This document shows, piece after piece, positions 1,192-57,600 of a stretch of DNA of 64,000 nucleotides. Numbering within the stretch: the first letter of the stretch is position 1; each line of letters starts with the position of its first letter. Origin of the DNA: a virus (Duplodnaviria; Caudoviricetes); the IMG/VR virus record IMGVR_UViG_3300023435_000009; one strand, written 5' to 3'. Below the pieces are notes generated by a model. That model ran no database searches. It was given only the letters and a program-made list of their open reading frames with translations, and was not told the origin of the DNA. A program made the position numbers and the translations under genes.

Positions 1192-4100
1192 ATGCCATTT
1201 CCTGGTCAAAATTATGCTCCTCCGGGCGTTTTCACGACGACACTATTTGAAAACCCTTTGGCATCGGCTCTGGAGAGCCTCAAGATTCCCATCATCATTG
1301 GTGAGGGAAATGAGAACCTCATCCAGCAAGACCTGGAGATCGTCCGTGGTTCCTCTTCCACGGTGGATCAGCGGGTTGTCGGTGAGGACGAGTCTCTTCG
1401 TGCTGTCGTGGTTGAGTCTGCCACAGGTCAGATCACCCTGGGTGCCTGGGACGGAGTCCTGGACAAGCTCCAGGTGGTAAACTACCCCATCGTCACTGGT
1501 GACGGTACGGGCACTACGACCACAAGCCGCACTGACGTGACCGTGACCATCAATAACGAGGTCATCGCCGTCCGTTCCGTGGCCGGGTCCACCGGACTTG
1601 TACAGCTTGCAACCGTTCCCTCGCCCGGAGACGTCGTCCGCTGTACCTACTACTTCGATCGCACGGACACCCTGCTGACCGATGACGTGTCGGAACAGGT
1701 GCCCAACCGTCTGGCGACCGTGAAGGCTCTCTCGGGTCTCGCAGACGTGGACGCCCCGAACTCCACCAGTGCCGTCCTGGACATCCACGGCGATATCACG
1801 GTGGGTGGTGTGGTTGTGGATGCGGCCAACAACGTTGTCAACCTGGTGGTTGACAGTGTGGCCCGTTCCATTGCCCTTCCGGCACGCAGCACCTACACGA
1901 TGGCTCAGATTGCAGCAGCGATCACAGCGGCCCGTGCGGGGACGCTGACGGCCACCACCTTCGTGAACAGCTACGGACACTCTACGCTGTCCCTGCTGGC
2001 CACCTATAGCGTGTCTGTAGCGGATGGGAGTGCCAACGGGCTGCTCGGCCTCATCGCTGGGCTGGCTGATAACCGGGTCTCCACCTTCTACACCTTCCAA
2101 GGTCCCATCGTGGACGGTTCCGGCGGTGGTGTGACCACGACCGACCCCTCCCACGTTGTGGTGCGGGTGGATGGTGTCCAGGTCATCCCCTCGTCCGTGG
2201 ACGGTGCCTCCCGTGCAGTGACCCTGTCTCGGGCACCCAAAGCGGGTGCGGTGATGTCCATCCAGTACTACTGGAACACCTGGCAGGATACGTTCGATTA
2301 CCTGGCTCACATCGCCGTCACATCGGTGACTCAGTGCGGTTCGGTGCCAGGCGTCAGCGACTACACCCAGGGTGCCGACTTCATCCTTGAGGATGATCGC
2401 ATCATGTGGGGCACGGCAGCCACGGTGATTGCGGGGATCAATACGGTCGGATCGGAGCCGTTCGATGACACCCAGATCGGTCTGTCCCTGGTGGACAACC
2501 GGACCTTCCTCGGGGCATGCACCCCGGTGGTGTCCGCTGCTGGTGGTGTGTCCACGGACTCCCGCCTCAGCTTCCAGCTTCCCGTGAGTCCTACGCTGGG
2601 AAACGGGCGGGATACACCGCTCGGTCAGAGCCTCTACCAGACCATCAGCAACAATCGGATCGACGTGGCAACCAACCGTCCTGATGTCGTGTGGGCCTAC
2701 TGGGGCTACGACGTCCAGGATGCGATGGCACGGGGCAAGGTTGAAGTGCTGAAGGTTGAAGGTTCCGTCCTCACCTTGGCGGAGGCCGTTCCTCCGGGTG
2801 CCTCGGTGTGGGCAACCGTGTACTACAACGTTCTCACCGACGCCACCTACACCATCGCCAACGAGGCAGCGGGTGCCTCGGGTGTTGGTCAGTACGCCGT
2901 GAAGAACGCCCTGGGCGCTTCCATCTTCGGTGCCTCAATCACCGCAGGGAGTAAGGGTGCGGCTCTTGTAGGAGTCACTGTGGAATTCCCCTCCGGTTCC
3001 GAGTTGAACCCGGACTTCCACTATGAGTCCGTGAGTGGCGACTTCTTCACGGGGCCTGTTGACGAGATCGTTACGGTCCAGTTTGCAGCCCGGAAGGCAT
3101 CCCCGGCCAAGTATGGCCTCTCCGGTGCCGGACCCTATGCCTTCATCGATGGTCAGTCCGACCACCTCCGTGTCCAGGTACATGGGATTGAGGCAACCTC
3201 GACGGCGGGCCTCGATCTGGCATCCCCCTCGGCGGTCCTCACCCACACGGGTGGCTTCTTCGCCTCCCTCGTCGGAACTGAACTGGCATACGAAGGCGGC
3301 GTTGGTTCCGTGGAGGGTGAGAGCGTTACGATCACGGCGGATGAGACCCTCACACTGATTGTGGACGACGTCAGCATCCCGGTGGTGTTGCCCCCGGCGA
3401 CTGCCGTGGATGCCACCTACTTTGCAGACCGTATTAATGAGCATGCCAGCGGGCACGGCGGGCTGGCTCAGGGTGGATCCATTGCAAGTACCCTCGTGTT
3501 GAGCGCTACCGCTACGCCCCCCGCAGCGGCGACCTCGGACGACTACTACAACGGCTGGGTCATTGTAGTCGGCAACGGTGGTGCAGGCACCGCCGGTCAG
3601 GCTGTGACCGTGACGGACTACGACGGCGTCACCCAGACGGCGACGGTGACCCCCGTATGGGCCGCAGCGTCTCCGATTGTCACGGATCCCTACTTCATCT
3701 ACAACCCCAACACGGTGGCGCTCTATACAGGAGCCACCAAGTTCGACGGTCCCGTCACACTGGCGGTTGGCCTGCATGATAAGATGCGTATGGTCTACAC
3801 AGGCGACGTGTCCGGTGCGCTGGTGTTTACCGCTGGCAACACGGTGGATCTGGGTGATGGCCCCTTCGCCACGGCAGCGCTTCTCGCCGCCGAGGTCACC
3901 TCACAGACCGCTGTTCAGGTCACAGCCCTCGCCTCGGTAGCGCACGCAGGACTGATCATTACCTGTGCAGCGAACGCCGATGGGCAGTTGCAGTTCAGCA
4001 TGCAGCTTCCGGGCGTGGACACTGCCGGATCTTTGCAGTTCCTCGACGCAGCAACCGCCGCTGAGGACTTCGCAATCCTGGCGGGTCTTGACACAGGGGC

Positions 4101-39800: not shown

Positions 39801-42302
39801 TTCGAGCTTTCCGCCACCGTAGGAACGAAGATCTCGGGGATGCAGTTCCTTCCCGTACAGGTTTCCGGGGCCGAGTACGGTTTGCCCCATGACAACTGCG
39901 TGGGCGTTGATGATGCAGCCCTTTCCATCTATGGGTTCCGGCGGCTGACCTTCAGGCCGCCCACGTCGTTGACTCATTTCCCTGCCGCCCCGGATAACGC
40001 TCAACCTGTGGTGTTCAACTCTGCGGGGGCACCCGGCGTGACGGACGGGGCCTTGGACAGGGTTGCGGGGTTCAACACCTTGATCCCCATGGTCTCTGCC
40101 CCGGAACCGGGGCATGAGTTCCTGCCCAGTCCAGCGACTCCGGTCTACCACTGGGTCGCACACACGTTGGACGTGCAGGCGTTTAACAGCCTGCTTCAGC
40201 TTTGGGACACCCTGAATGTGGCTGGTGGCTCCTACGGCGGCATCCATGGTGCGACGGGAGTCCGGTGCATCCTCCCTGGGACCGAGATGGCTATGACCAG
40301 TGAAAATGTCGGGGTGATGCTCCCAGGCTTCCGTGCCCAGGCAGGGATCTTCCTGGAGCCCTCCGTGCCTCGTGCCGGGTTGGATCTGGTTCCGGCAGTC
40401 AGTCACGTTCGGGTTGTTGACCAGGACCACAGTCTTCCTGACCCCACTCTTGCGGCAACGGATGATGTGCGAGAGATCTGGATGAGGAACGCTCATGACT
40501 ACTACCTGGGAGGTGGTGCTTCTACGCAACCGAACATCCCGGAAGAGGTCACCTTCATTGTGAGACGCATCCGTCGTTTTCACAACGTCGGGGGTTCTCC
40601 TACGAACCTGATGCCCCTGCGATATGCCTACGAGATCCGCCGAGGAATGATCACTGATTACACTGTGATGCCCAGCCAGATGTGCATCGTGCAGGCCAAC
40701 TCTTTCACAATGAACTGGGAATCGATCAAGCCCGCAGGGTCACCCAAAGCGAACGACGCTTGGAATGACGGTGCCACCTACCTGGGAACCAACCTGGGGC
40801 CGTTCAACAACGAGGACGTGAACGCCCACGCCGGGGACACCTTCCGGCTCCTGGATCGTTTCGGGGACGTAGTGGAGGAAGCCGAGATCAGTTCCGTGAG
40901 GGAAGGACATGAGTTGGTTCTTGTTCCTCCAGGGTTGCAACTCTATGACCCCTCTAACGGGACCGTGCGGTTCGAGATTTTCCTCCGGCACGCTCCGGTG
41001 CCCCATGAGCAGACCAACGAGCAACTCCTGGATGTCATTACTTCTCGGGCTGTCACACGCACGGACGCTACCTGGGGTGTGGCCTCAGAGTTGGGTGGTT
41101 ACGTCCCAGAGGTCACAGGTGGGGCCACCTATGCTGGTAATGTCAACAAGCTCTACGACGACCTGAACGCCCCAGGAACCGGGGGCCAGACCTTCGGGGC
41201 GTTGGGGGTACAGAAGGGTGATATCGTTGTGGTGGATCCCATCGGGTTGATTCCTCAGAACTTAGCGGGCGATCCCACAACGCAAGAGTTGGCGATGCGT
41301 CCGGTGGGGGACGATTCTGTAGACGTCAGGATCGGTGCCGGAGTGTATGTGCCTGGACGCCCGAACCCTCTGGATGACAACAGGGGCTTCTACAGGGTTC
41401 TCCAGGTGGTCGATTCGGTGACACCCCCCTACTTGCTGGTGAATCCGGTTACGGAATTCACGGGGACAGATGTCGCTCCCGTTGTGTTCGATCCTACGGA
41501 TGACACCCGAGCGTATGCGGTGTACCCCTCGATCCACGACTCTTCTTTGGCTGCGACTGGCGAGGAGGGGCAGATGGATCTTCGTCCGACGAGGGCGAGG
41601 AATCCTGCGAATGGTTCCTTCAAGAACTACCCCAGCGGACTCAGCAACCACTCGGTAAGGCCCTTCTCTTATCAGGTGATTCGTCCGACGCAGTTCTTCA
41701 CGGACGCCACCATTGACTTGGTCCTGTCCACTCGGGAACGGATGCTCTCCCTCATCGCTTTGATCAATCAAATTGGGCACACCAAGGGTGGCAGTTATTT
41801 CATCTTCCAACGGGACACCCACCTGTACGATGTGGGCAGCCCGACCGACCCGGAGTTGGGCCTCGGTGTGGCCTCTAACGACTACCTCATGTCCGTGGTG
41901 GGCCGGGTGGATGTGATGCCCTATGCCAATAACACGACCTGCTTGTCCCTTCTGGACAGGAGGTTCTGGATCCTGGACGAGAAGCTGGACTTCCTGACGT
42001 ATGATGCAGCCAGCGGGACGGGGATGAGAAGGGCGGGTCCAGGGGACACCCCATACACTGAGTACTCTACAGTGACGGGGAGCATGGTCCGCCCTGTGCT
42101 GCCAGACTTGGTAGACGATGTGCTGGATCAGTCTGAGAGGCTCCGGGACGTGCGGTACGTCTGGTTGGCCTACCGGACTCATCAGGTTCTGGGCACGCTT
42201 GCCTCACTGAGCCGCTTTGACGCTGAGTTACCCAAACGTCTTCAGGAACAGGAGCAGTATCTGCTCCTGAAGGAATCGATGGAGAAGGTCTCTGAAACTT
42301 GA
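30888..42302 (+). CDS. giant (3804 aa) virion structural protein, probably baseplate/fibre-anchoring
   Basis: Uninterrupted 11.4-kb ORF with phage-type GC3 bias, beta-rich composition, located in the baseplate module. Confidence 0.7.
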   Translation: MGFSFDGHVLRGARIAPSNAVTSGEPVTGVIRDPRSVPTAYTLKVGSPLGEPPTFVDAAADKYRAGILDAPGTTPVEYLVWAQNTASLSWVDDPSWWLETGTATYPTGTLSVTDVVAGETWTDGAAHLVVTDEGNRSLSRILAVVVARGDQDYDDDGWIDPDDVNPANHPGGQPRKGNAPYVTLYFEADEQSPTLGMAYLTDVQQTALAGGLSLRRGDYVVAVHYTLASSRFWWTRNDRYETRFGWDGQARRWAPYKGTAVKNLGAMVLDLDYTMSPKVNNLPVGTFLPGSSAAPDQYSMIRVGSVPGATGTPVGSVRVVADSDFEDYDFAANPCNAVMGQTGGKLAFNPEFATAHAGETIWYSYKGYSPTSDGIVGPMRLADATPLYLAPIPGPTDHPFIHFGSRNPLTPILVTTDAALASINTVDPGTVAVSLSTGKLRFAPEDVQRADPSTPLFDKYFLGEDVIYKGVALNSQPQPTRAPVALVDEAGAVATAQDDPLYIPDAVELPTEFALDDPRRGLGVSGILDAPDGTGGLPSQPGVAATVRPGGDTIGAQNLGRIRQVDDGVGESILFSREGAIITLEEVTLEADLPTMGFKVKASKAYVARERGVEGSLVVLGRSDRKSFGDNAVYFLQSSLTPATFTTDAVVYSRGRDIFRFTGDEVFYYAVDGTAYLWTPTLLLAAYPNNSYFTPEMVAASLQSDTLPLPPAGTATAVSGRVAIRGATSVEIGFGTDGEKDLSGCTALGLMPGWRAVNGVQNWLPDSGVTLGLPRSPSNMDRSSATPDYAAVDRVENIILSESVPPSPFTFLDNVPLQDIAGYDDGVFFTLQYLALNGDEIEVVNKPLLHYEDIIHRFGQRKFDWVEDSIALGVVDKTTTTLNLGVPSLVPETLLGIPEIAAGLLVAPDGGVYIFQDPDTDFVLPQDGVSGNVILVERFGSLVTYGSKGARLTDPTHFEDQSADFTQAKVGYRLKITSGDNTGSYLVEEILSSTQVRLAPAIPEESQIWMTWELFTGHTSDVYDPALVADMVYKDFQLLPEEPFIIRILHLAGLVPATPAEQEANRLQVDMGEAVELDRPISLRFGLEAVNLTNEATLTALRKVPMGTMANNLLTLPDVNSSRFSTEAFSVQVGRATFSHGAGDLVGVASFSSDPSGIEYLTADIVVGGVTTPKGRLKFGTTVLTSLTGAKVYYQEEFLGAALLVSGEAEFDPSDGWFNLSSADLTVHAGKRLYFVEQLETEGHRDVSINPMLGAFSPNVPLPRGAVVEVLYWRADLEGRRIGDQVVEFLPVFVRKEQAQLVAPNIYKFNHALEDTVFQDIEPSVWIGAMMQNFGQVDCVVDYPEDWNGAGRVTFVSKTVDATDPVTVTFAVYEAQGGERSYEASQKNIYRPPFFIKANQSRFGLRTDRTAEFEPGQMIRIGEDCFYIRSLKYFPLETDGSGDVTEVNIFPSTINEVGSRAPGNDLLNYITDKPLTTVVDPDGPTPVPTTAAAGFMSAIDLTQFPFESVVRGQKVVIFRGDLTEFAVPGHVIEIGGAPYTIGSSEITEDGTRTKITVTGSFHRAFDILAAPIVKISYRPVYPPNFMEFVGVGPVLDSETVELVLFGETLSNGEEAPGRTLVPDVEYHLDYTSGAVQLLWPPQAGLQPNQWLLLTFTKLRTLQPYLKDEVLVEPRFQASFLSVTTPSEANDRLGATLAATFTFSSPDSFYFRAVELTQFLSEAAQEAIRDINATSPAGGSIQISAGGTDNWQQGRFGLMGEKAHLSDLDRAARTFLGFYNDTVVAFEQIQETISGGFVGDRDGKFRFWVGYGKDYPTPGYEDAISGGLLSRFVWADAVNSERVLGAPAFLTLDDWVVAPDSVTLEDAEISGSFLGPNTLNIMQTIQGALVQNDVDDVVLLKLGKTHITGTGADPYYHFKAKGVFGRMSDQHQFSRIFPTRTKAFFRLYPGAGAQMEPGAFNPGVYTAGRDINGEWLKTTGEQIGQISNPVLGDIQGVDSIDLVERRARGRIWGYFPDGLPGGLFDGGASPPVPVACIIVTPLLLRDVPVDPETGYPDDTRFLSTVPPGDLGDAVAGDPELAVPGFEAGDQLGWGKPDGTELGAFCPTTVLMWGATEPTGLFVREVLYGCVITFQDYLAAPMALPEEVLVVDTPAHEYPLERGDTLMVVSPSGVAMQAPQVPDLTTAPTFQTFADSTVLAGLYRDGYDLGTKSDGQVIDKSLPSLQDHAYIPLKELAGQNVPEPTSSVEGILEFLYMNQNPLKVPALLGGWVDDSGDFSVPYIRTGNTEIDRFEDISVVVSEAISARSDTVPTEAVYPDEILSLNGVVNVVGDTPASLDVDADLFPVVPGPIVPGIGNARPYDLILVQEPALFEDSDFTTLAGYTLGPHGILSIGRAETIPGGTAVEPPRFVTHTAAPPAGLSPVTGDAVRYNLTNAMVFVDGIYPPDPQVGVPPAGVAVFEDTLAGITVLDFTSVPMALNDGITRGVGNLNDVYFAGNPITIRMIARPDPNVVAGPVGPNPLPSLTGGVEALRITLWQGMAFVWTYQDDFNLAPPIGVALGGPPIFGDNVVPVLPVSDNRQIIIPGLGIIPWGAVPPNTWFLPHTLTPGPLYTMIYGFEYSFDIDARGFLHWAPAAPIWGSLTAWVDEDRLTFHETCDLRYASERGFVHPLNPALDLETQLTVDEVRLGRDAATWYWSDVNARANGWTGAPIPFTFLMRVPPYVGEWQMAAGTVSERGSIRVMAFEGHDNVPIEGVTVASATVPSCDYPPNQTAEICSGVGVTSSRLNTWLTPAEVESSDCRLTAITPSSGSVGAVEKGDVLVINGSSNLTYPGTLYAGTYLVRHAVETLGGSYRAVAPTSTTGVGTGWCPVVYPTVLGYDNVTNELTVSDLAPAAGGPLVGGVNVGFPLPAAGTRVFVLISPAGLASFDELTFRGSVISAEYSGMAMVAGRGVFTVANWQDAMGTVITEAEFELSATVGTKISGMQFLPVQVSGAEYGLPHDNCVGVDDAALSIYGFRRLTFRPPTSLTHFPAAPDNAQPVVFNSAGAPGVTDGALDRVAGFNTLIPMVSAPEPGHEFLPSPATPVYHWVAHTLDVQAFNSLLQLWDTLNVAGGSYGGIHGATGVRCILPGTEMAMTSENVGVMLPGFRAQAGIFLEPSVPRAGLDLVPAVSHVRVVDQDHSLPDPTLAATDDVREIWMRNAHDYYLGGGASTQPNIPEEVTFIVRRIRRFHNVGGSPTNLMPLRYAYEIRRGMITDYTVMPSQMCIVQANSFTMNWESIKPAGSPKANDAWNDGATYLGTNLGPFNNEDVNAHAGDTFRLLDRFGDVVEEAEISSVREGHELVLVPPGLQLYDPSNGTVRFEIFLRHAPVPHEQTNEQLLDVITSRAVTRTDATWGVASELGGYVPEVTGGATYAGNVNKLYDDLNAPGTGGQTFGALGVQKGDIVVVDPIGLIPQNLAGDPTTQELAMRPVGDDSVDVRIGAGVYVPGRPNPLDDNRGFYRVLQVVDSVTPPYLLVNPVTEFTGTDVAPVVFDPTDDTRAYAVYPSIHDSSLAATGEEGQMDLRPTRARNPANGSFKNYPSGLSNHSVRPFSYQVIRPTQFFTDATIDLVLSTRERMLSLIALINQIGHTKGGSYFIFQRDTHLYDVGSPTDPELGLGVASNDYLMSVVGRVDVMPYANNTTCLSLLDRRFWILDEKLDFLTYDAASGTGMRRAGPGDTPYTEYSTVTGSMVRPVLPDLVDDVLDQSERLRDVRYVWLAYRTHQVLGTLASLSRFDAELPKRLQEQEQYLLLKESMEKVSET

Positions 42303-42327
42303 TAAGTGTTCAACGGTGCTTTAAGAT
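42299..42327 (+). promoter_or_regulatory. sigma70-type promoter in the element left end
   Basis: TTGATA (42299-42304), 17 nt, TAAGAT (42322-42327); GTCAT-gtgc-ATGAC hairpin at 42332-42345. Confidence 0.65.
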
Positions 42328-42368
42328 GTTGGTCATGTGCATGACTATCACGCAGGCAGAGGGGAAAA

Positions 42369-43577
42369 GTGCTTCTAGCTCATGAAATAAGGCTCCGTCC
42401 CTCCCGAACGCAGGAGGAATACTTTCGTCATGCCTGTGGTGTGGCGAGGTTCACGTACAACTGGGCGTTGGAACATTGGAAAAGCGCCTACGAGGCGGGA
42501 GAAAAACCTTCTGGATCTTCTCTCAAGAAACAGTTCAATGCTATCCGTCGTGAGAAGTTTCCCTGGACTTATGAAGTTCACAGGGACTGTACAGCCCAGT
42601 CTTTCACGCAACTCCAAAAGGCGTTCACGCATTTTTTCCATCGTATGAAAGCGGGTCGAAAACCAGGCTACCCCAAGTTTAAAAAACGAGGTGGGTGCAA
42701 GGACTCTTTCTACATAGCTAATGACCGATTCCGATTAGACAACAAACGTATCCACTTACCCAAAATAGGATGGGTCAGGTTGCGTGAAGTCCTACGTTTC
42801 GAGGGTATGATCACCAGTGCTATCGTCAAGCGTGTAGCTGACGCCTGGTTCGTTGTAGTACAGGTCGATGTCGGTGACTATCGACGTGACCGCATTGCCA
42901 ATAGTGAGGTCGGTGTCGATTTGGGTATCAGATCCTCTGCTACACTCTCCACCGGGGAGCATATTCAAGGACCAAAGGCCTTGAAAAAGAACCTGAGGAA
43001 GTTGCAACGGGAGTCCCGTTGGCATTCCCGCAAACAGAAGGGATCAGCAAATCGCCGTAAATCGACAATGAAATTGGCTCGATTGCACCGTCGGATCGGT
43101 TACGTCCGATCCGACTATCTGCACAAACTGAGTACAAGGCTCTGTCGTGAGAACCAAGCGATAGGGATCGAGGATTTGGCTGTACAGAACATGGTTCGTA
43201 ATAGGCGGTTGAGCCGCCACATCGTGGATGAGGGATGGGGGGGGTTTCGACGGCAGATCAATTATAAGGCGGTCATCTTTGATGACGTGGTCGTTGTTCA
43301 TGATCGTTTTTACGCTTCGTCGAAGACCTGTTTTTTGTGTTGTGAAAAGAGGGCTAAGTTAAGCCTATCCGAGCGTACCTTCAAGTGCGCCTGCGGTTGG
43401 GAAATTGACAGAGATGTCAATGCCGCTTTGAACTTACTACCGTGGGTTACACGGGAAGTTACGCTTGTGGAGAAGGAAGCGCTGGTTTTGGCATTAGCTG
43501 AAACGAAACTGCCTTTGATGAAGCAGGAACTAACCCCTACGCCTTTGTGCGTGGGGGAAAGGTATCAGAAGGCCTAG
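42369..43577 (+). CDS. tnpB: RNA-guided endonuclease TnpB
   Basis: N-terminal HTH (AHEIRLRP...ARFTYNWAL), RuvC-I VGVDLG, RuvC-II IGIEDL, Zn finger CxxC...CxCG, RuvC-III DRDVNAALNL; all three catalytic acidic residues present. Confidence 0.95.
   Translation: MLLAHEIRLRPSRTQEEYFRHACGVARFTYNWALEHWKSAYEAGEKPSGSSLKKQFNAIRREKFPWTYEVHRDCTAQSFTQLQKAFTHFFHRMKAGRKPGYPKFKKRGGCKDSFYIANDRFRLDNKRIHLPKIGWVRLREVLRFEGMITSAIVKRVADAWFVVVQVDVGDYRRDRIANSEVGVDLGIRSSATLSTGEHIQGPKALKKNLRKLQRESRWHSRKQKGSANRRKSTMKLARLHRRIGYVRSDYLHKLSTRLCRENQAIGIEDLAVQNMVRNRRLSRHIVDEGWGGFRRQINYKAVIFDDVVVVHDRFYASSKTCFLCCEKRAKLSLSERTFKCACGWEIDRDVNAALNLLPWVTREVTLVEKEALVLALAETKLPLMKQELTPTPLCVGERYQKA
43441..43572 (+). ncRNA. putative omegaRNA scaffold overlapping the tnpB 3' end (5' boundary approximate)
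   Basis: Follows the DVNAALNL codons; hairpins GTTTTGGC-atta-GCTGAAAC (43485-43504) and CCCCTACGC-ctttgt-GCGTGGGGG (43534-43557); 84% identical over 92 nt to the non-coding copy at 54578-54668. Confidence 0.7.
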
Positions 43578-43804
43578 TGGAGATCCCTAAAGAAATTCAG
43601 GACTTGCTGGACAAACTCGGGGTGGACCCTGGGGCCTGGGGTGAGATGGAAGGGCACGCTGCCACTCCTCCCCTGATGCAGCGTCAGGCTGAAACTCTCG
43701 TCAAGCTCCGCACCTTCCTGGAGACTATGGTGGCCCAGGATCAGGCCGCATTGTCGGGGCTGCATGAACAGTTGGCCCGACTGAAACACGGTGGGGGATC
43801 CTGA
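43577..43804 (+). CDS. small hypothetical coiled-coil protein
   Basis: GTG at 43577 overlaps the TAG stop (TAGTG); the listed start at 43547 lies inside the omegaRNA and is unlikely. Confidence 0.6.
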   Translation: MEIPKEIQDLLDKLGVDPGAWGEMEGHAATPPLMQRQAETLVKLRTFLETMVAQDQAALSGLHEQLARLKHGGGS

Positions 43805-53920: not shown

Positions 53921-53991
53921 AAATTCGGTAGGGTGAGGTCTAGTCTGAAAGAAGTTGGGTTTGGGGTTACAGACTGTGGAGAGGGGACACA

Positions 53992-54516
53992 ATGGTTTTA
54001 CGTGAGAAAGTGCTCAAGTTGGCCCACGACCGGCCAGAATTTCGGAAGTACCTTGTTCCTTTGTTGAGAAGGTGTGCTGCTTCGACTCCCTCCTACCAGG
54101 AGTACGTGGACAAGAAGAGACAGAAGAATGAGCGTCCTCTCTCCAAGGATAAGTGGGAGAGGAGGGTGCTGCGCAACCGGGGGATCTCTGAGGGCCACGA
54201 AGAGTGGAAGAAGGACGAAGCGGCCAAGAAGGACCTGAAGAAGACGGATAAGTCCGACACCAAACGGAAGGACCGAAAGGAATTGTCCGATAAAGTTGTG
54301 AAATCCAGGGGTCTCAAGGATAAGGATCTTGAAGAAGTTCAGGCCTATCAGAAGAAGAATGTGAAGCCGGGTCAGAAGGGCAAATTGAAGCCCTGGGAAC
54401 TCAAAGCTAAGTTCTTGGCAAAGGCCAGCCCTGAAACGAAAGAACGGATGAAGGGGCTGAACAACCAGGAGTTCATGGCGGTTCTCAATGCTATCATGGA
54501 TGAGGACGAGGGTTAA
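53992..54516 (+). CDS. small highly charged (Lys/Glu/Arg-rich) hypothetical protein
   Basis: GGAGAGGGG SD; 174 aa; N-terminal LREKVLKLAHDRPEFRKYLVPLL helix. Confidence 0.7.
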   Translation: MVLREKVLKLAHDRPEFRKYLVPLLRRCAASTPSYQEYVDKKRQKNERPLSKDKWERRVLRNRGISEGHEEWKKDEAAKKDLKKTDKSDTKRKDRKELSDKVVKSRGLKDKDLEEVQAYQKKNVKPGQKGKLKPWELKAKFLAKASPETKERMKGLNNQEFMAVLNAIMDEDEG

Positions 54517-54518
54517 CC

Positions 54519-54533
54519 CAGTTTTTAGCCAAT
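54519..54533 (+). promoter_or_regulatory. putative late-promoter motif CAGT-N8-AAT
   Basis: CAGT ttttagcc AAT directly upstream of the AGGAG RBS that the mini-element displaced. Confidence 0.45.
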
Positions 54534-54545
54534 GAGGTAGGAGAA

Positions 54546-54668
54546 CGTTTCTAGGGTTCTTGACAGTGTGTAACGGGGCGCTGGTTTCGGCATTAGCTGA
54601 AACGAAACTGTCCTCGTTGGAGTAGGGGCTAATTCCTACGTTTTTGTGCGTGGGGAAAGGTAGCAGAA
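54546..54668 (+). mobile_element. 123-bp non-autonomous miniature derivative of a TnpB/IS607-like element (left end plus 3' omegaRNA/right end)
   Basis: 54541-54579 aligns to the TnpB left end 42282-42319; 54578-54668 aligns to 43479-43570 (77/92 identical); flanked by AGGTAGGAGAA and AGGTAGCAGAA. Confidence 0.85.
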
Positions 54669-54671
54669 GCC

Positions 54672-57600
54672 ATGGCAGCGGTAATCGTCAGTAAACTATA
54701 CACCTCTCCGGTTGGCCCCCAGGTTGGACCCACCGAGACGGGGATCAGCAGGAACGATCTACAAAAGGGCTACCGTGTGGTCTGTGAGTCACTTAACGTG
54801 GCGACGACCTACAGTTGGTCCCTTGTGTTCACTCCGGATTCCCCTGGCCCCACAGCGGCCTCTGGGAACGACTTCACAGGTACTCCGTCCACTGCGGGCC
54901 TGCTGCCCCCCGAGGGTAGCACGTCGGCCACGTGCAAGTTTGATGTAGACTGGGACGGTTCCTACCTCATCCGTCTCATCACTGATGCGGGCACGGTAGA
55001 CGAGGACTCTCAGTTCATCCGGCTTCGATTGATGACTACCTTCGGTGATCTGAAGCTCATCGCCGCCGGGGAGCGTCGGGACCAAGGTGGTGTGGTTCCT
55101 GTGGACGCAGCGACCGAAGGGTGGTCGGATGTCCAGAACCAGAACATCCAGCGGCTGATGCTGATGGTGCGCCGGGGAATGACTACGGGCCGGACGCTCT
55201 ACGTTGATCCCAACAGGGGGCGGACCTTCCTTACCTCTCAGGCGTCCGACGATACTACAAATATCGTGCGTGTCCCCGGACCGGACTCCGCAGCGAGAGA
55301 TGAGAGTGGGATGCGGATGTCGGCGGTAGGGTGTGGGGACTTCTCCTCCATCTCTGAAGCCATCAGCTACGCTTCCGCTGCTGTCGCCAGGGGGGAACCG
55401 GCCTTGGCTGCAGGGGATCCCTACATCATCAATGTGGCCCCTGGGACTTACAATGAGGACTTAGCGCTGGTCCCCTTCGTTTATTTGATGGGGGCTGGGG
55501 GGTACTACAATCGGGTCACTACAGTTGATGCCACCACTACAGGTTCCCACACGTTTACGGCAACAGGTCCCGGTGACCTCTGTGTTTTGATAGGGATGCA
55601 CCTGACGAATAGTCTCGTTACAACCGGGGCGGTTCTGGAAAACAACGGTGGTATTCTCATCCTTCAGGACGTTGCAGTCCAGCAGGAAGGTGTTTCCGGA
55701 ACGCAGGGGCCTGCTCTTCATGTTGATCAGGCTTTTGAGTCTACGGTCTGGGCTGACCAATGTCTCTTGAGTTCAGAGGGCTCTCCTGCAACTCAATATG
55801 CGCTCGTCCTTGAGAACCTTGCTGGAGCAGTCACCTTTACAGGGGGGATGATCGTTGGGCCATCCGCTGTGTTCTGTCTCTCGGATCCTGTCGCAGGAGC
55901 ATCTACGCTGGCTGTAGACATCCGCAGTGCTGTGATTACAGCAGGGGTCGGAGGTACTGCCTATCAGGGATACCCCAGCAGTACGACGTTTGCTACCTCT
56001 GAGATTGGGGGGCCTGTGGTGCTTAGTTCCGGGGCTTACGGGGTGGGGGCCTACACCCACGATGTGGAACTGGAACTCAACGCTGTTTCCTTTGATGTAG
56101 CTCTGCTGGTTGCCCCTGTGTCAGTGACCCCGACTGGTACGACCGGATCCTGCACTTTCAACCACGGGGACGTTGTTGTCCGTGGAGCTACCGCAGGGGA
56201 TTATCTGGATGTCCCCACGGCCCCTGGAAACGTGCCTACGGTGGAGCCCAGTTCTCAGAGCTACGCCAACTATTTTGACAACAACTTCACCAACCCTCTG
56301 ACGACGCTTTCGCTGAACAGTCTTCAGCAGATCCCGGTGGGTAACGTCCAGGAGGCCCTTACGCTCCTGACTCGTTACGTGCTGCCCGTCACGGGAGCAC
56401 CGTTCTACTCCCTGGAGTCTGCATATAACGGCCTCGCTTCCTTGAACCCCCCGGTAGCGGGTGATGGGTTGGGCCGGACCATCGAGGCGGGTGCCGGAGC
56501 TGTTCAGATCACGGCGGCACTTGCCCCGGTGGTACCCTACGAGCCGCTCCTGTTGGGCGGTCTTCAGGTAGAGGGTCAGGTTGATATAGGCCCCCTGATG
56601 GGGGATGGCCTGGGCTCCGAGTTTACGGTCGACCCCAACACCTTTGGGATGGGTGTGATCCTTAAGATGGGTCGCAATGTCTTCCCCAACGTGACGGGGC
56701 TGAATTCGTTGGCTCTGGTTCAGGTGGGTTCCGATCCTTCTTTGCCTTTCGACTACACTGTCCACACGAGGAACAGTGCTGGTCTACTCCTCAGGCCGGG
56801 GGCTGCAAGTCTGGTTGCAGGATCCGGGGTAGGGGCACTTGGCCCTGGGGGCGGTGACGTTCATCTACAAGCGGGTTCCGCAGGAAACCCCGCACCCACT
56901 ACGGGTTCTGTGTGGGTTGCCCCCGGTGCCCACACTGTTACTAACGGACGTCTAGAGTTGGCGGACCCCTCAACGGCGACGGCCCCCACTTTGTTGGCTG
57001 CCGGACCTTTTGTTCCTGGTCCCGCCACAGGCACCTTCTACATTCAGACCATCAATGGTGTGGAGGAGCACACGATCCTGGCGGCGGACACCATTGGCAC
57101 TTTGGTGGCCCGAATCAACACCACTTCCCTGAGTTTGGCGGCTACAGCCGTCATGGGGACCACACTAAGACTCACGGGTCTGAACACGGGGCCGACCGCC
57201 TTCATCCTCTACATGACGGATGATCAGGGCGGGGCACTCAACACAATGATGGGAGACTTGGTCCCCCCGGCGGCGACATATGTTGCAGGGAGCTACGTCA
57301 ATCATGTGGGTCTGAGTTGCATTGGAGCCAATCTGTTCCATGTTCACGGTACAGTCTCGGCAGATGTGCCCATTATTGCCGTTCCTGGTGGCTATCAGCC
57401 AATGCTCAATCCTGGAGCGCTTGTTGGACCAGGAATCGCTATTGTTGGGGTGGATAACACGGCAGGTACTGTTACGGTGACACTTCCAGTAGCTCCTGCT
57501 GTGGCGACACAGCTTACGGTCAAGCACGAGGCGGGTGTGTTGGCTCCACTTACTCCTGTGAACATCGTTCCGGGGGCAGCCAATATCGACGGTGTCGCTG

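Follow-up and report, generated by a model that had tools for sequence, protein, structure and literature searches.

Among described systems, the ISFba1-type IS607 TnpB and its guide RNA are among the nearest comparisons for the locus studied here. Their RNA derives from RAGATH-18, the known guide-RNA core of IS607 TnpBs (PMC11061315). The TnpB of ISDra2, which belongs to a different clade, uses an omegaRNA that overlaps the 3' end of tnpB, takes its guide from the flank beyond the right end of the element, and is built from hairpins and long-range pairings (PMC10097598). In the solved TnpB-RNA complexes, the protein contacts the 5' stem, the triple helix, and the pseudoknots (PMC10097598, PMC11061315). 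Disruption of a pseudoknot abolishes cleavage, and the RNA that can be removed lies only outside the scaffold or in a disordered stem (PMC10097598, PMC11061315); in ISDra2, stem 3b and the sequence 5' of the 116-nt scaffold are the only parts for which dispensability was demonstrated (PMC10097598). A further point of reference is provided by the PATE-like, protein-less mini-elements of the IS200/IS605 type, which are short and non-coding, carry transposon-end and guide-RNA sequence, and need TnpB in trans (Meers et al., PMC10055086). The idea of mini-element guides that are used in trans has already been published for PATEs.

We analyzed a 64,000-nt stretch of phage DNA, here called the window, which is part of a 109-kb IMG/VR record covering ~21% of a phage seen as 521-528 kb contigs (~520 kb). 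The window holds a full TnpB element and, just ahead of the gene for a 1004-aa virion protein, a 113-base leftover of a TnpB element (54557-54669), referred to below as the mini copy (Table 1). The mini copy is a new, degraded instance of a mini-element in a very large phage. Our preferred reading is that it is a decayed deletion derivative, probably an inert relic rather than a guide RNA that TnpB can load.

The full element resembles the IS607/ISFba1 system (PMC11061315) in the RuvC triad and zinc finger of its TnpB, in the linkage of its homologues to a TnpA with MerR-HTH and serine-resolvase parts, in an end at GG and a position behind a G-rich, Shine-Dalgarno-like motif, and in the RNA-core boxes CCUGUGGAG ... 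GAUGAAGCAGGAA, which are common to both. It differs in that it lacks TnpA, in that its RNA overlaps the 3' end of tnpB whereas the ISFba1 RNA is separate, and in that the Rfam score falls below threshold at the window locus and at all 20 homologous loci tested. The overlap with tnpB, the origin of the guide in the right flank, and the mixture of hairpins and long-range pairings are shared with ISDra2, although clade and fold are different and the deletion in the mini copy cuts into the scaffold itself. PATEs keep both ends and the whole scaffold and occur in several copies (PMC10055086), whereas the mini copy is of IS607 type, is missing the first third of its scaffold, and carries mutations in the core. 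In place of the several dispersed copies of a PATE- or MITE-like family, the 109 kb contain one truncated copy.

Table 1. Features of the full TnpB element and of the mini copy, in window coordinates.
Feature	Position	Strand	Evidence
Full element, non-autonomous IS607-type: left end, tnpB, guide RNA/right end	42289-43572	+	Empty sites in three related phages
tnpB, 402 aa	42369-43577	+	Pfam HTH_OrfB_IS605, OrfB_IS605, Cas12f1-like_TNB
Full element's omegaRNA (guide-RNA) scaffold, complete	43433-43568	+	R1 covariance model, 144.1 bits
Flank supplying the full element's guide, CCTAGTGGAG...	43573-43592	+	Empty-site reconstruction; family conservation stops at CAG
Possible left-end stub, TTCTTGACAGTGTGTAACGGG, after a GG	54557-54577	+	16/19 match to full left end; weak
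Mini copy: last two thirds of guide RNA and right end	54578-54669	+	Repeat family D1, alignment, R1 46.3 bits
Variable hairpin, retained; 8 bp with an ATTA loop and a single U-G to C-G change	54584-54603	+	Fold, family covariation
Orphaned 3' strands of deleted long-range helices	54609-54630	+	8/14 substitutions here
Retained terminal hairpin, 9 bp, three G-U pairs	54633-54656	+	Fold, family covariation
Conserved tail AAGGTAGCAG and AAG	54657-54669	+	Family alignment
Would-be guide CCATGGCAGCGGTAATCGTC	54670-54689	+	Homology to mapped right boundary of full element
Predicted junction of an empty allele, TTTCTAGGG/(AGAAG)CCATGGCAGC			

The boundaries of the full element were mapped using empty sites. 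In three related phages (L190, L191, and L192), the small gene follows directly after the giant ORF, without tnpB, and joining the window flanks at AGAAGG/CC gives the C-terminus SMEKA followed by a stop, equal to that of L190. The element therefore spans 42289-43572, with both boundaries free to shift within the 6-nt repeat AGAAGG, which occurs at 42283-42288 and 43567-43572. Its guide possibly starts up to 4 nt earlier than listed, at AAGG, and would then run from about 43569-43592. The guide flank spans the GTG start of a 75-aa gene, and the element as a whole separates the start codon of that gene from its Shine-Dalgarno motif. Because the right end recreates AGAAGG at an unchanged distance from the GTG, translation coupling (TAGTG) is kept. 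In the close homologues L175, L178, and L181, the element end likewise lies ~6-17 nt ahead of the start of the next gene.

Judged from its sequence, the TnpB looks catalytically intact. The RuvC residues D184, E268, and D349 and the zinc-finger cysteines C321, C324, C340, and C342 are all present, in columns that are invariant in the homologue alignment. There is no transposase gene beside tnpB and no gene between the giant ORF and tnpB, and no resolvase was found in the 109-kb record. Homologous TnpB loci (37-47% identity) have a TnpA with MerR-HTH and serine-resolvase parts directly upstream; the TnpA motif was detected in 16 homologous loci and confirmed by Pfam in 5 of 5. Since the homologues carry TnpA upstream and the window copy does not, we assign the clade to the IS607 type and consider the window copy non-autonomous. 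Insertion after GG, a GG end, and scarless empty sites, as found for the full element, are features of the IS607 type. Upstream of a TnpB with 59% identity (L015:2360-2500), only the MerR-HTH-like end of a TnpA-like frame is present, without the resolvase part, and this sequence suggests a truncated transposase.

A family alignment of the guide RNA was made from the region after the RuvC motif of close and distant homologues, in which conserved boxes alternate with variable hairpins. The fold was derived with RNAalifold and then with a covariance model, R1 (136 positions, 34 pairs). Its outer parts are a 5' hairpin, a variable terminal hairpin, and the tail GAAAGGUAGCAG; its core consists of three nested long-range helices (CCUGU/GCAGG, GAAG/CUUU, and a 2-bp helix) that enclose a variable hairpin. 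R1 matches at the 3' end of tnpB at well over 100 loci. Across 66 distinct sequences, 93.6% of cells in the seven helices are paired, compared to 36-42% with slid partners, and compensatory changes occur at all 34 pairs, although these statistics come from an alignment fitted to R1 itself and are hence biased in its favor. In Rfam, RAGATH-18 (RF03064) aligned to positions 43464-43529 of the full copy with 24 bits (E 0.015-0.022), compared to a gathering threshold of 44.9 that was reached by none of the 20 homologous loci. The core of the full copy resembles RAGATH-18 weakly, and this likeness is not membership. Together, the analysis provides a covariance-supported fold for a phage-borne IS607-type guide RNA as well as mapped element boundaries that are supported by empty sites in related phages.

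A first-pass annotation of the window had described a repeat between this guide RNA and the region ahead of the virion gene, and the repeat is real. The mini copy from 54578 to 54669 is ~83% identical by alignment to the last ~92 nt of the full element's guide RNA and right end, with homology beginning at GCGCTGG (54578). Of the 14 substitutions between 43479-43574 and 54578-54671, 12 are transitions; the two sequences also differ by two 1-nt indels. The family model, run with filters off, detected no copies of the ~95-nt repeat in the window beyond these two, and a simple DNA search detected no others in the 109-kb record. The hypervariable hairpins are nearly identical in the mini and full copies, which places both in one element lineage.

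The flanks of the repeat were also compared with the full element. A left-end remnant containing a TTGACA hexamer had been proposed upstream of the repeat, and this is plausible: the 19 nt before the repeat match the full left end at 16 positions, including the promoter-like hexamer (TTGATA/TTGACA), and the closest homologues, L178 and L181, have the start of the left end, TAAGTG..AA.GG, in conserved form. The signal is weak, however, as 71 of 500 shuffles (14%) equalled it, so the match is not significant alone. A consensus scan found no promoter in the mini copy. The guide position that had been assigned to the mini copy is correct to within a few bases of GCCATGG, as judged by empty-site homology and by uniqueness in the window: the flank CCATGGCAGCGGTAAT abutting the 3' end of the scaffold occurs once there, next to the conserved tail AAGGTAGCAG. 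The would-be guide possibly starts up to 3 nt earlier (54667 to 54670) and overlaps the ATG (54672) of the 1004-aa gene. Within the tail, the full and presumably active copy has a T at position 43565 (TATCAG), and the mini copy and 5 of 6 outgroups have a G (TAGCAG).

The three stems that had been read as conserved between the copies fared differently against the family fold. Stem 1, GTTT(T/C)GGC-atta-GCTGAAAC (54584-54603), is a covarying family hairpin, with a U-G to C-G change that is one-sided. The 9-bp terminal stem (54633-54656) folds in both copies and covaries in the family, but the wobble pairs said to have preserved it may be ancestral: its 5' strand has three C/T differences, and for two of them some or most outgroups share the T of the mini copy, so the full copy may be the one that changed. 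The supposed compensatory change from T-A to C-G in a middle stem rests on correctly read letters, but the family fold contains no such helix. There, the bases fall in the 3' strand of a long-range helix and in an invariant box that is unpaired, and do not pair with each other; the change thus says nothing for conservation of structure. A covariance model, which the annotation had named as a check, was built here from homologous loci; it contains the two hairpins and the tail but not the middle stem, and its core is absent from the mini copy.

The mini copy had been said to lack ~40 nt of 5' scaffold, which we confirmed (~40-45 nt, 43437-43478). With this segment the mini copy lost the 5' hairpin as well as the 5' strand of each of helices 1-3 in the family fold, including those of the two main covarying long-range helices. 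The R1 score is 144.1 bits for the full copy and 46.3 for the mini copy. Among columns conserved at ≥90%, the full copy keeps 11/11 and the mini copy 4/11, and among those conserved at ≥75%, 25/26 and 11/26, respectively. Rfam produced no match to the mini copy at E up to 10, RAGATH-18 included. The family-invariant box GAAGCAGGAA reads GGAGTAGGGG in the mini copy (54619-54628), with four mini-only changes at 54620, 54623, 54627, and 54628; at the corresponding columns (92, 95, 99, and 100), six of six outgroups share the base of the full copy. Substitutions are concentrated in the 22 nt of orphaned 3' strands (8/22 versus 7/68, Fisher p = 0.008), and 12 of the 14 fall within repeat positions 34-65, forming one contiguous patch. 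Compared to a working scaffold of this clade, the mini copy has a guide-capable flank but neither the full set of covarying helices nor most of the conserved nucleotides. Given the contacts seen in the solved complexes, an RNA without the first third of the scaffold and with a mutated invariant box is unlikely to load on TnpB.

A related phage, L189, encodes a protein 57% identical to the 1004-aa protein and has only 61 nt between the two neighboring genes, a spacer in which we found neither an R1 match nor a 174-aa ORF. Its GAAGG Shine-Dalgarno motif aligns to TAGGG in the window (54552-54556), just ahead of the putative left-end stub, and AGATGCCATG in L189 aligns to AGAAGCCATG at the right end of the mini copy. 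From this alignment, the mini copy is an insertion of ~108-113 nt that separates the ATG from the ribosome-binding site, like the full element at its own site. Both loci, full and mini, are identical to the window in every contig of the phage read, and no empty allele is therefore visible in the population. The mini copy is fixed in the contigs read; of 20 similar places, two were sampled and both were identical to it. Single-protein scans of viral contigs for TnpB and the 1004-aa protein, together with a search for the exact mini DNA pattern, detected no close relatives, and the mini region had no match among annotated phage records.

A 174-aa ORF (53992-54516) beside the mini copy is not present in L189. 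A TGAGGT repeat lies on either side of it (53934-53939 and 54533-54538), and the sequences beyond the repeat are contiguous in L189; the region 53940-54538 is therefore a separate insertion or deletion. The 174-aa protein belongs to no Pfam family, and its sole distant homologue (37%) is non-syntenic. The possibility that it is a TnpB relative was considered and ruled out, as the two are unrelated.

We propose that the mini copy arose from a sister copy of the transposase-less IS607-type element, which entered directly behind the GG in the Shine-Dalgarno motif of the 1004-aa virion gene. This sister copy would then have lost ~1.17 kb, comprising tnpB together with most of its left end and the initial ~45 nt of its guide RNA. 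The mini copy is co-oriented with the virion-gene operon and so would be transcribed in that message. It can still form two self-contained hairpins, while formation of the 5' hairpin and of the two main long-range helices is impossible. Its persistence may have two reasons, namely that no transposase capable of its clean removal was detected in the 109 kb, and that its 3' end would now provide the spacer and the ribosome-binding region before the start codon of an essential gene. The evidence points to decay into a fragment, as is usual for elements of this kind.

Several observations nevertheless count against a relic. The hairpins and tail of the mini copy are better conserved than its middle, and every change in a stem kept the pairing, which could reflect selection on structure. 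The guide-adjacent tail is closer to the family consensus in the mini copy than in the full copy, and the orphaned 3' strands can still pair with the 5' strands of the full copy at 8 of 9 positions. In addition, the region folded in its context reaches -57.6 kcal/mol with the observed substitutions, a stability above that of 99.5% of randomly simulated substitution sets, compared to -49.7 kcal/mol for the same context with the sequence of the full copy, which this test takes as the ancestor.

Alternatively, the remnant could have been co-opted as a cis-acting structured leader of the 1004-aa gene, affecting mRNA stability, attenuation, or translation start, with its hairpins retained for that role. 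The increased predicted stability is in line with this reading. The mini copy lies immediately 5' of the ATG, where it displaced the native ribosome-binding site that is kept in the relative; the extended region has a fold z of -3.9, and seven mini-specific changes jointly create a terminator-like hairpin with a U-run (54622-54639). However, one terminator-like site is what shuffled sequences are expected to contain, the stability test depends on the full copy being ancestral, a duplex control with real windows was not significant, and the single contiguous patch of differences can be explained by a mosaic or gene-conversion history without selection. We regard a role as a leader as possible but unlikely. 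The suggestion that the stems were instead kept for transposase recognition, leaving the mini copy mobilizable as a MITE-like element, is compatible with the plausible left-end stub, the right end, and the known mobilization of mini-elements in trans (PMC10055086). It is a poor fit to a clade with a serine-recombinase (IS607) TnpA, which, unlike the hairpin-reading Y1 enzyme, does not read single-strand hairpins; with no resolvase in the 109-kb record and a single mini copy showing no sign of spread, we consider it highly improbable.

The first-pass annotation had proposed a second guide in trans: a transcript of the mini copy would be loaded by the TnpB encoded 11 kb upstream and direct cleavage of mini-less genomes, so that one phage nuclease maintains two loci. 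Retention of the hairpins, the tail, and the guide-like position of the flank is in line with this proposal, as are the apparently intact TnpB and the published discussion of mini-elements that need guide RNAs to be used in trans (PMC10055086). A predicted 9-bp closing helix in the native context (54529-54537 with 54612-54620) might also replace the lost ones. We rejected this helix as a candidate replacement: shuffles gave p ~0.01-0.05, but 23% of real 61-nt windows of the phage pair equally well. The loss of the 5' hairpin and of the 5' strands of two covarying core helices, the mutated box, the drop from 144 to 46 bits, and the absence of a RAGATH-18 signal leave the proposal unsupported. 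Furthermore, the contigs read show no empty allele that such a guide could cut, and the nearest relative's site mismatches it at 5 of 20 positions. Loading in trans is in our view improbable. An active mini copy would imply that an omegaRNA can work without its 5' third, with a bearing on the origin of split CRISPR guides. An argument against trans use from a TAM mismatch was dropped, because the boundary between scaffold and guide can slide within AGAAGG, giving would-be TAMs of GAAGG/TAGGG or TGGAG/GGGAG. We also considered a re-scaffolded or split guide, in which the closing helices are replaced by the upstream pairing or, in trans, by the 5' part of the full RNA, and TnpB loads the mini copy to home to or defend the second locus. 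This would represent a natural step toward a split resembling tracrRNA and crRNA, and it appears very unlikely. The decayed relic remains the reading that we prefer for the mini copy.

A third R1 match in the same phage (38.1 bits) was located at L186:1501-1638, on the - strand of that locus (G000:C1:103778-103915), ~8.3 kb before the window start and in the orientation of the window + strand. This scaffold is complete, with the 5' hairpin and the core helices present. No TnpB similarity was detected within 1.5 kb on either side, neighboring ORFs had no Pfam match, and homology to the left end was not significant (24 of 300 shuffles). As a complete scaffold without a TnpB, it is a better candidate than the mini copy for a guide used in trans. 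A viral contig of 17.9 kb, unrelated to this phage, carries two complete scaffolds that are nearly identical and spaced by 412 nt (L088:5607-5708 and L088:6019-6120; also L089:5607-5708). Neither adjoins a tnpB ORF, and both are downstream of a TnpB gene with an RNA of its own at 3851-3952.
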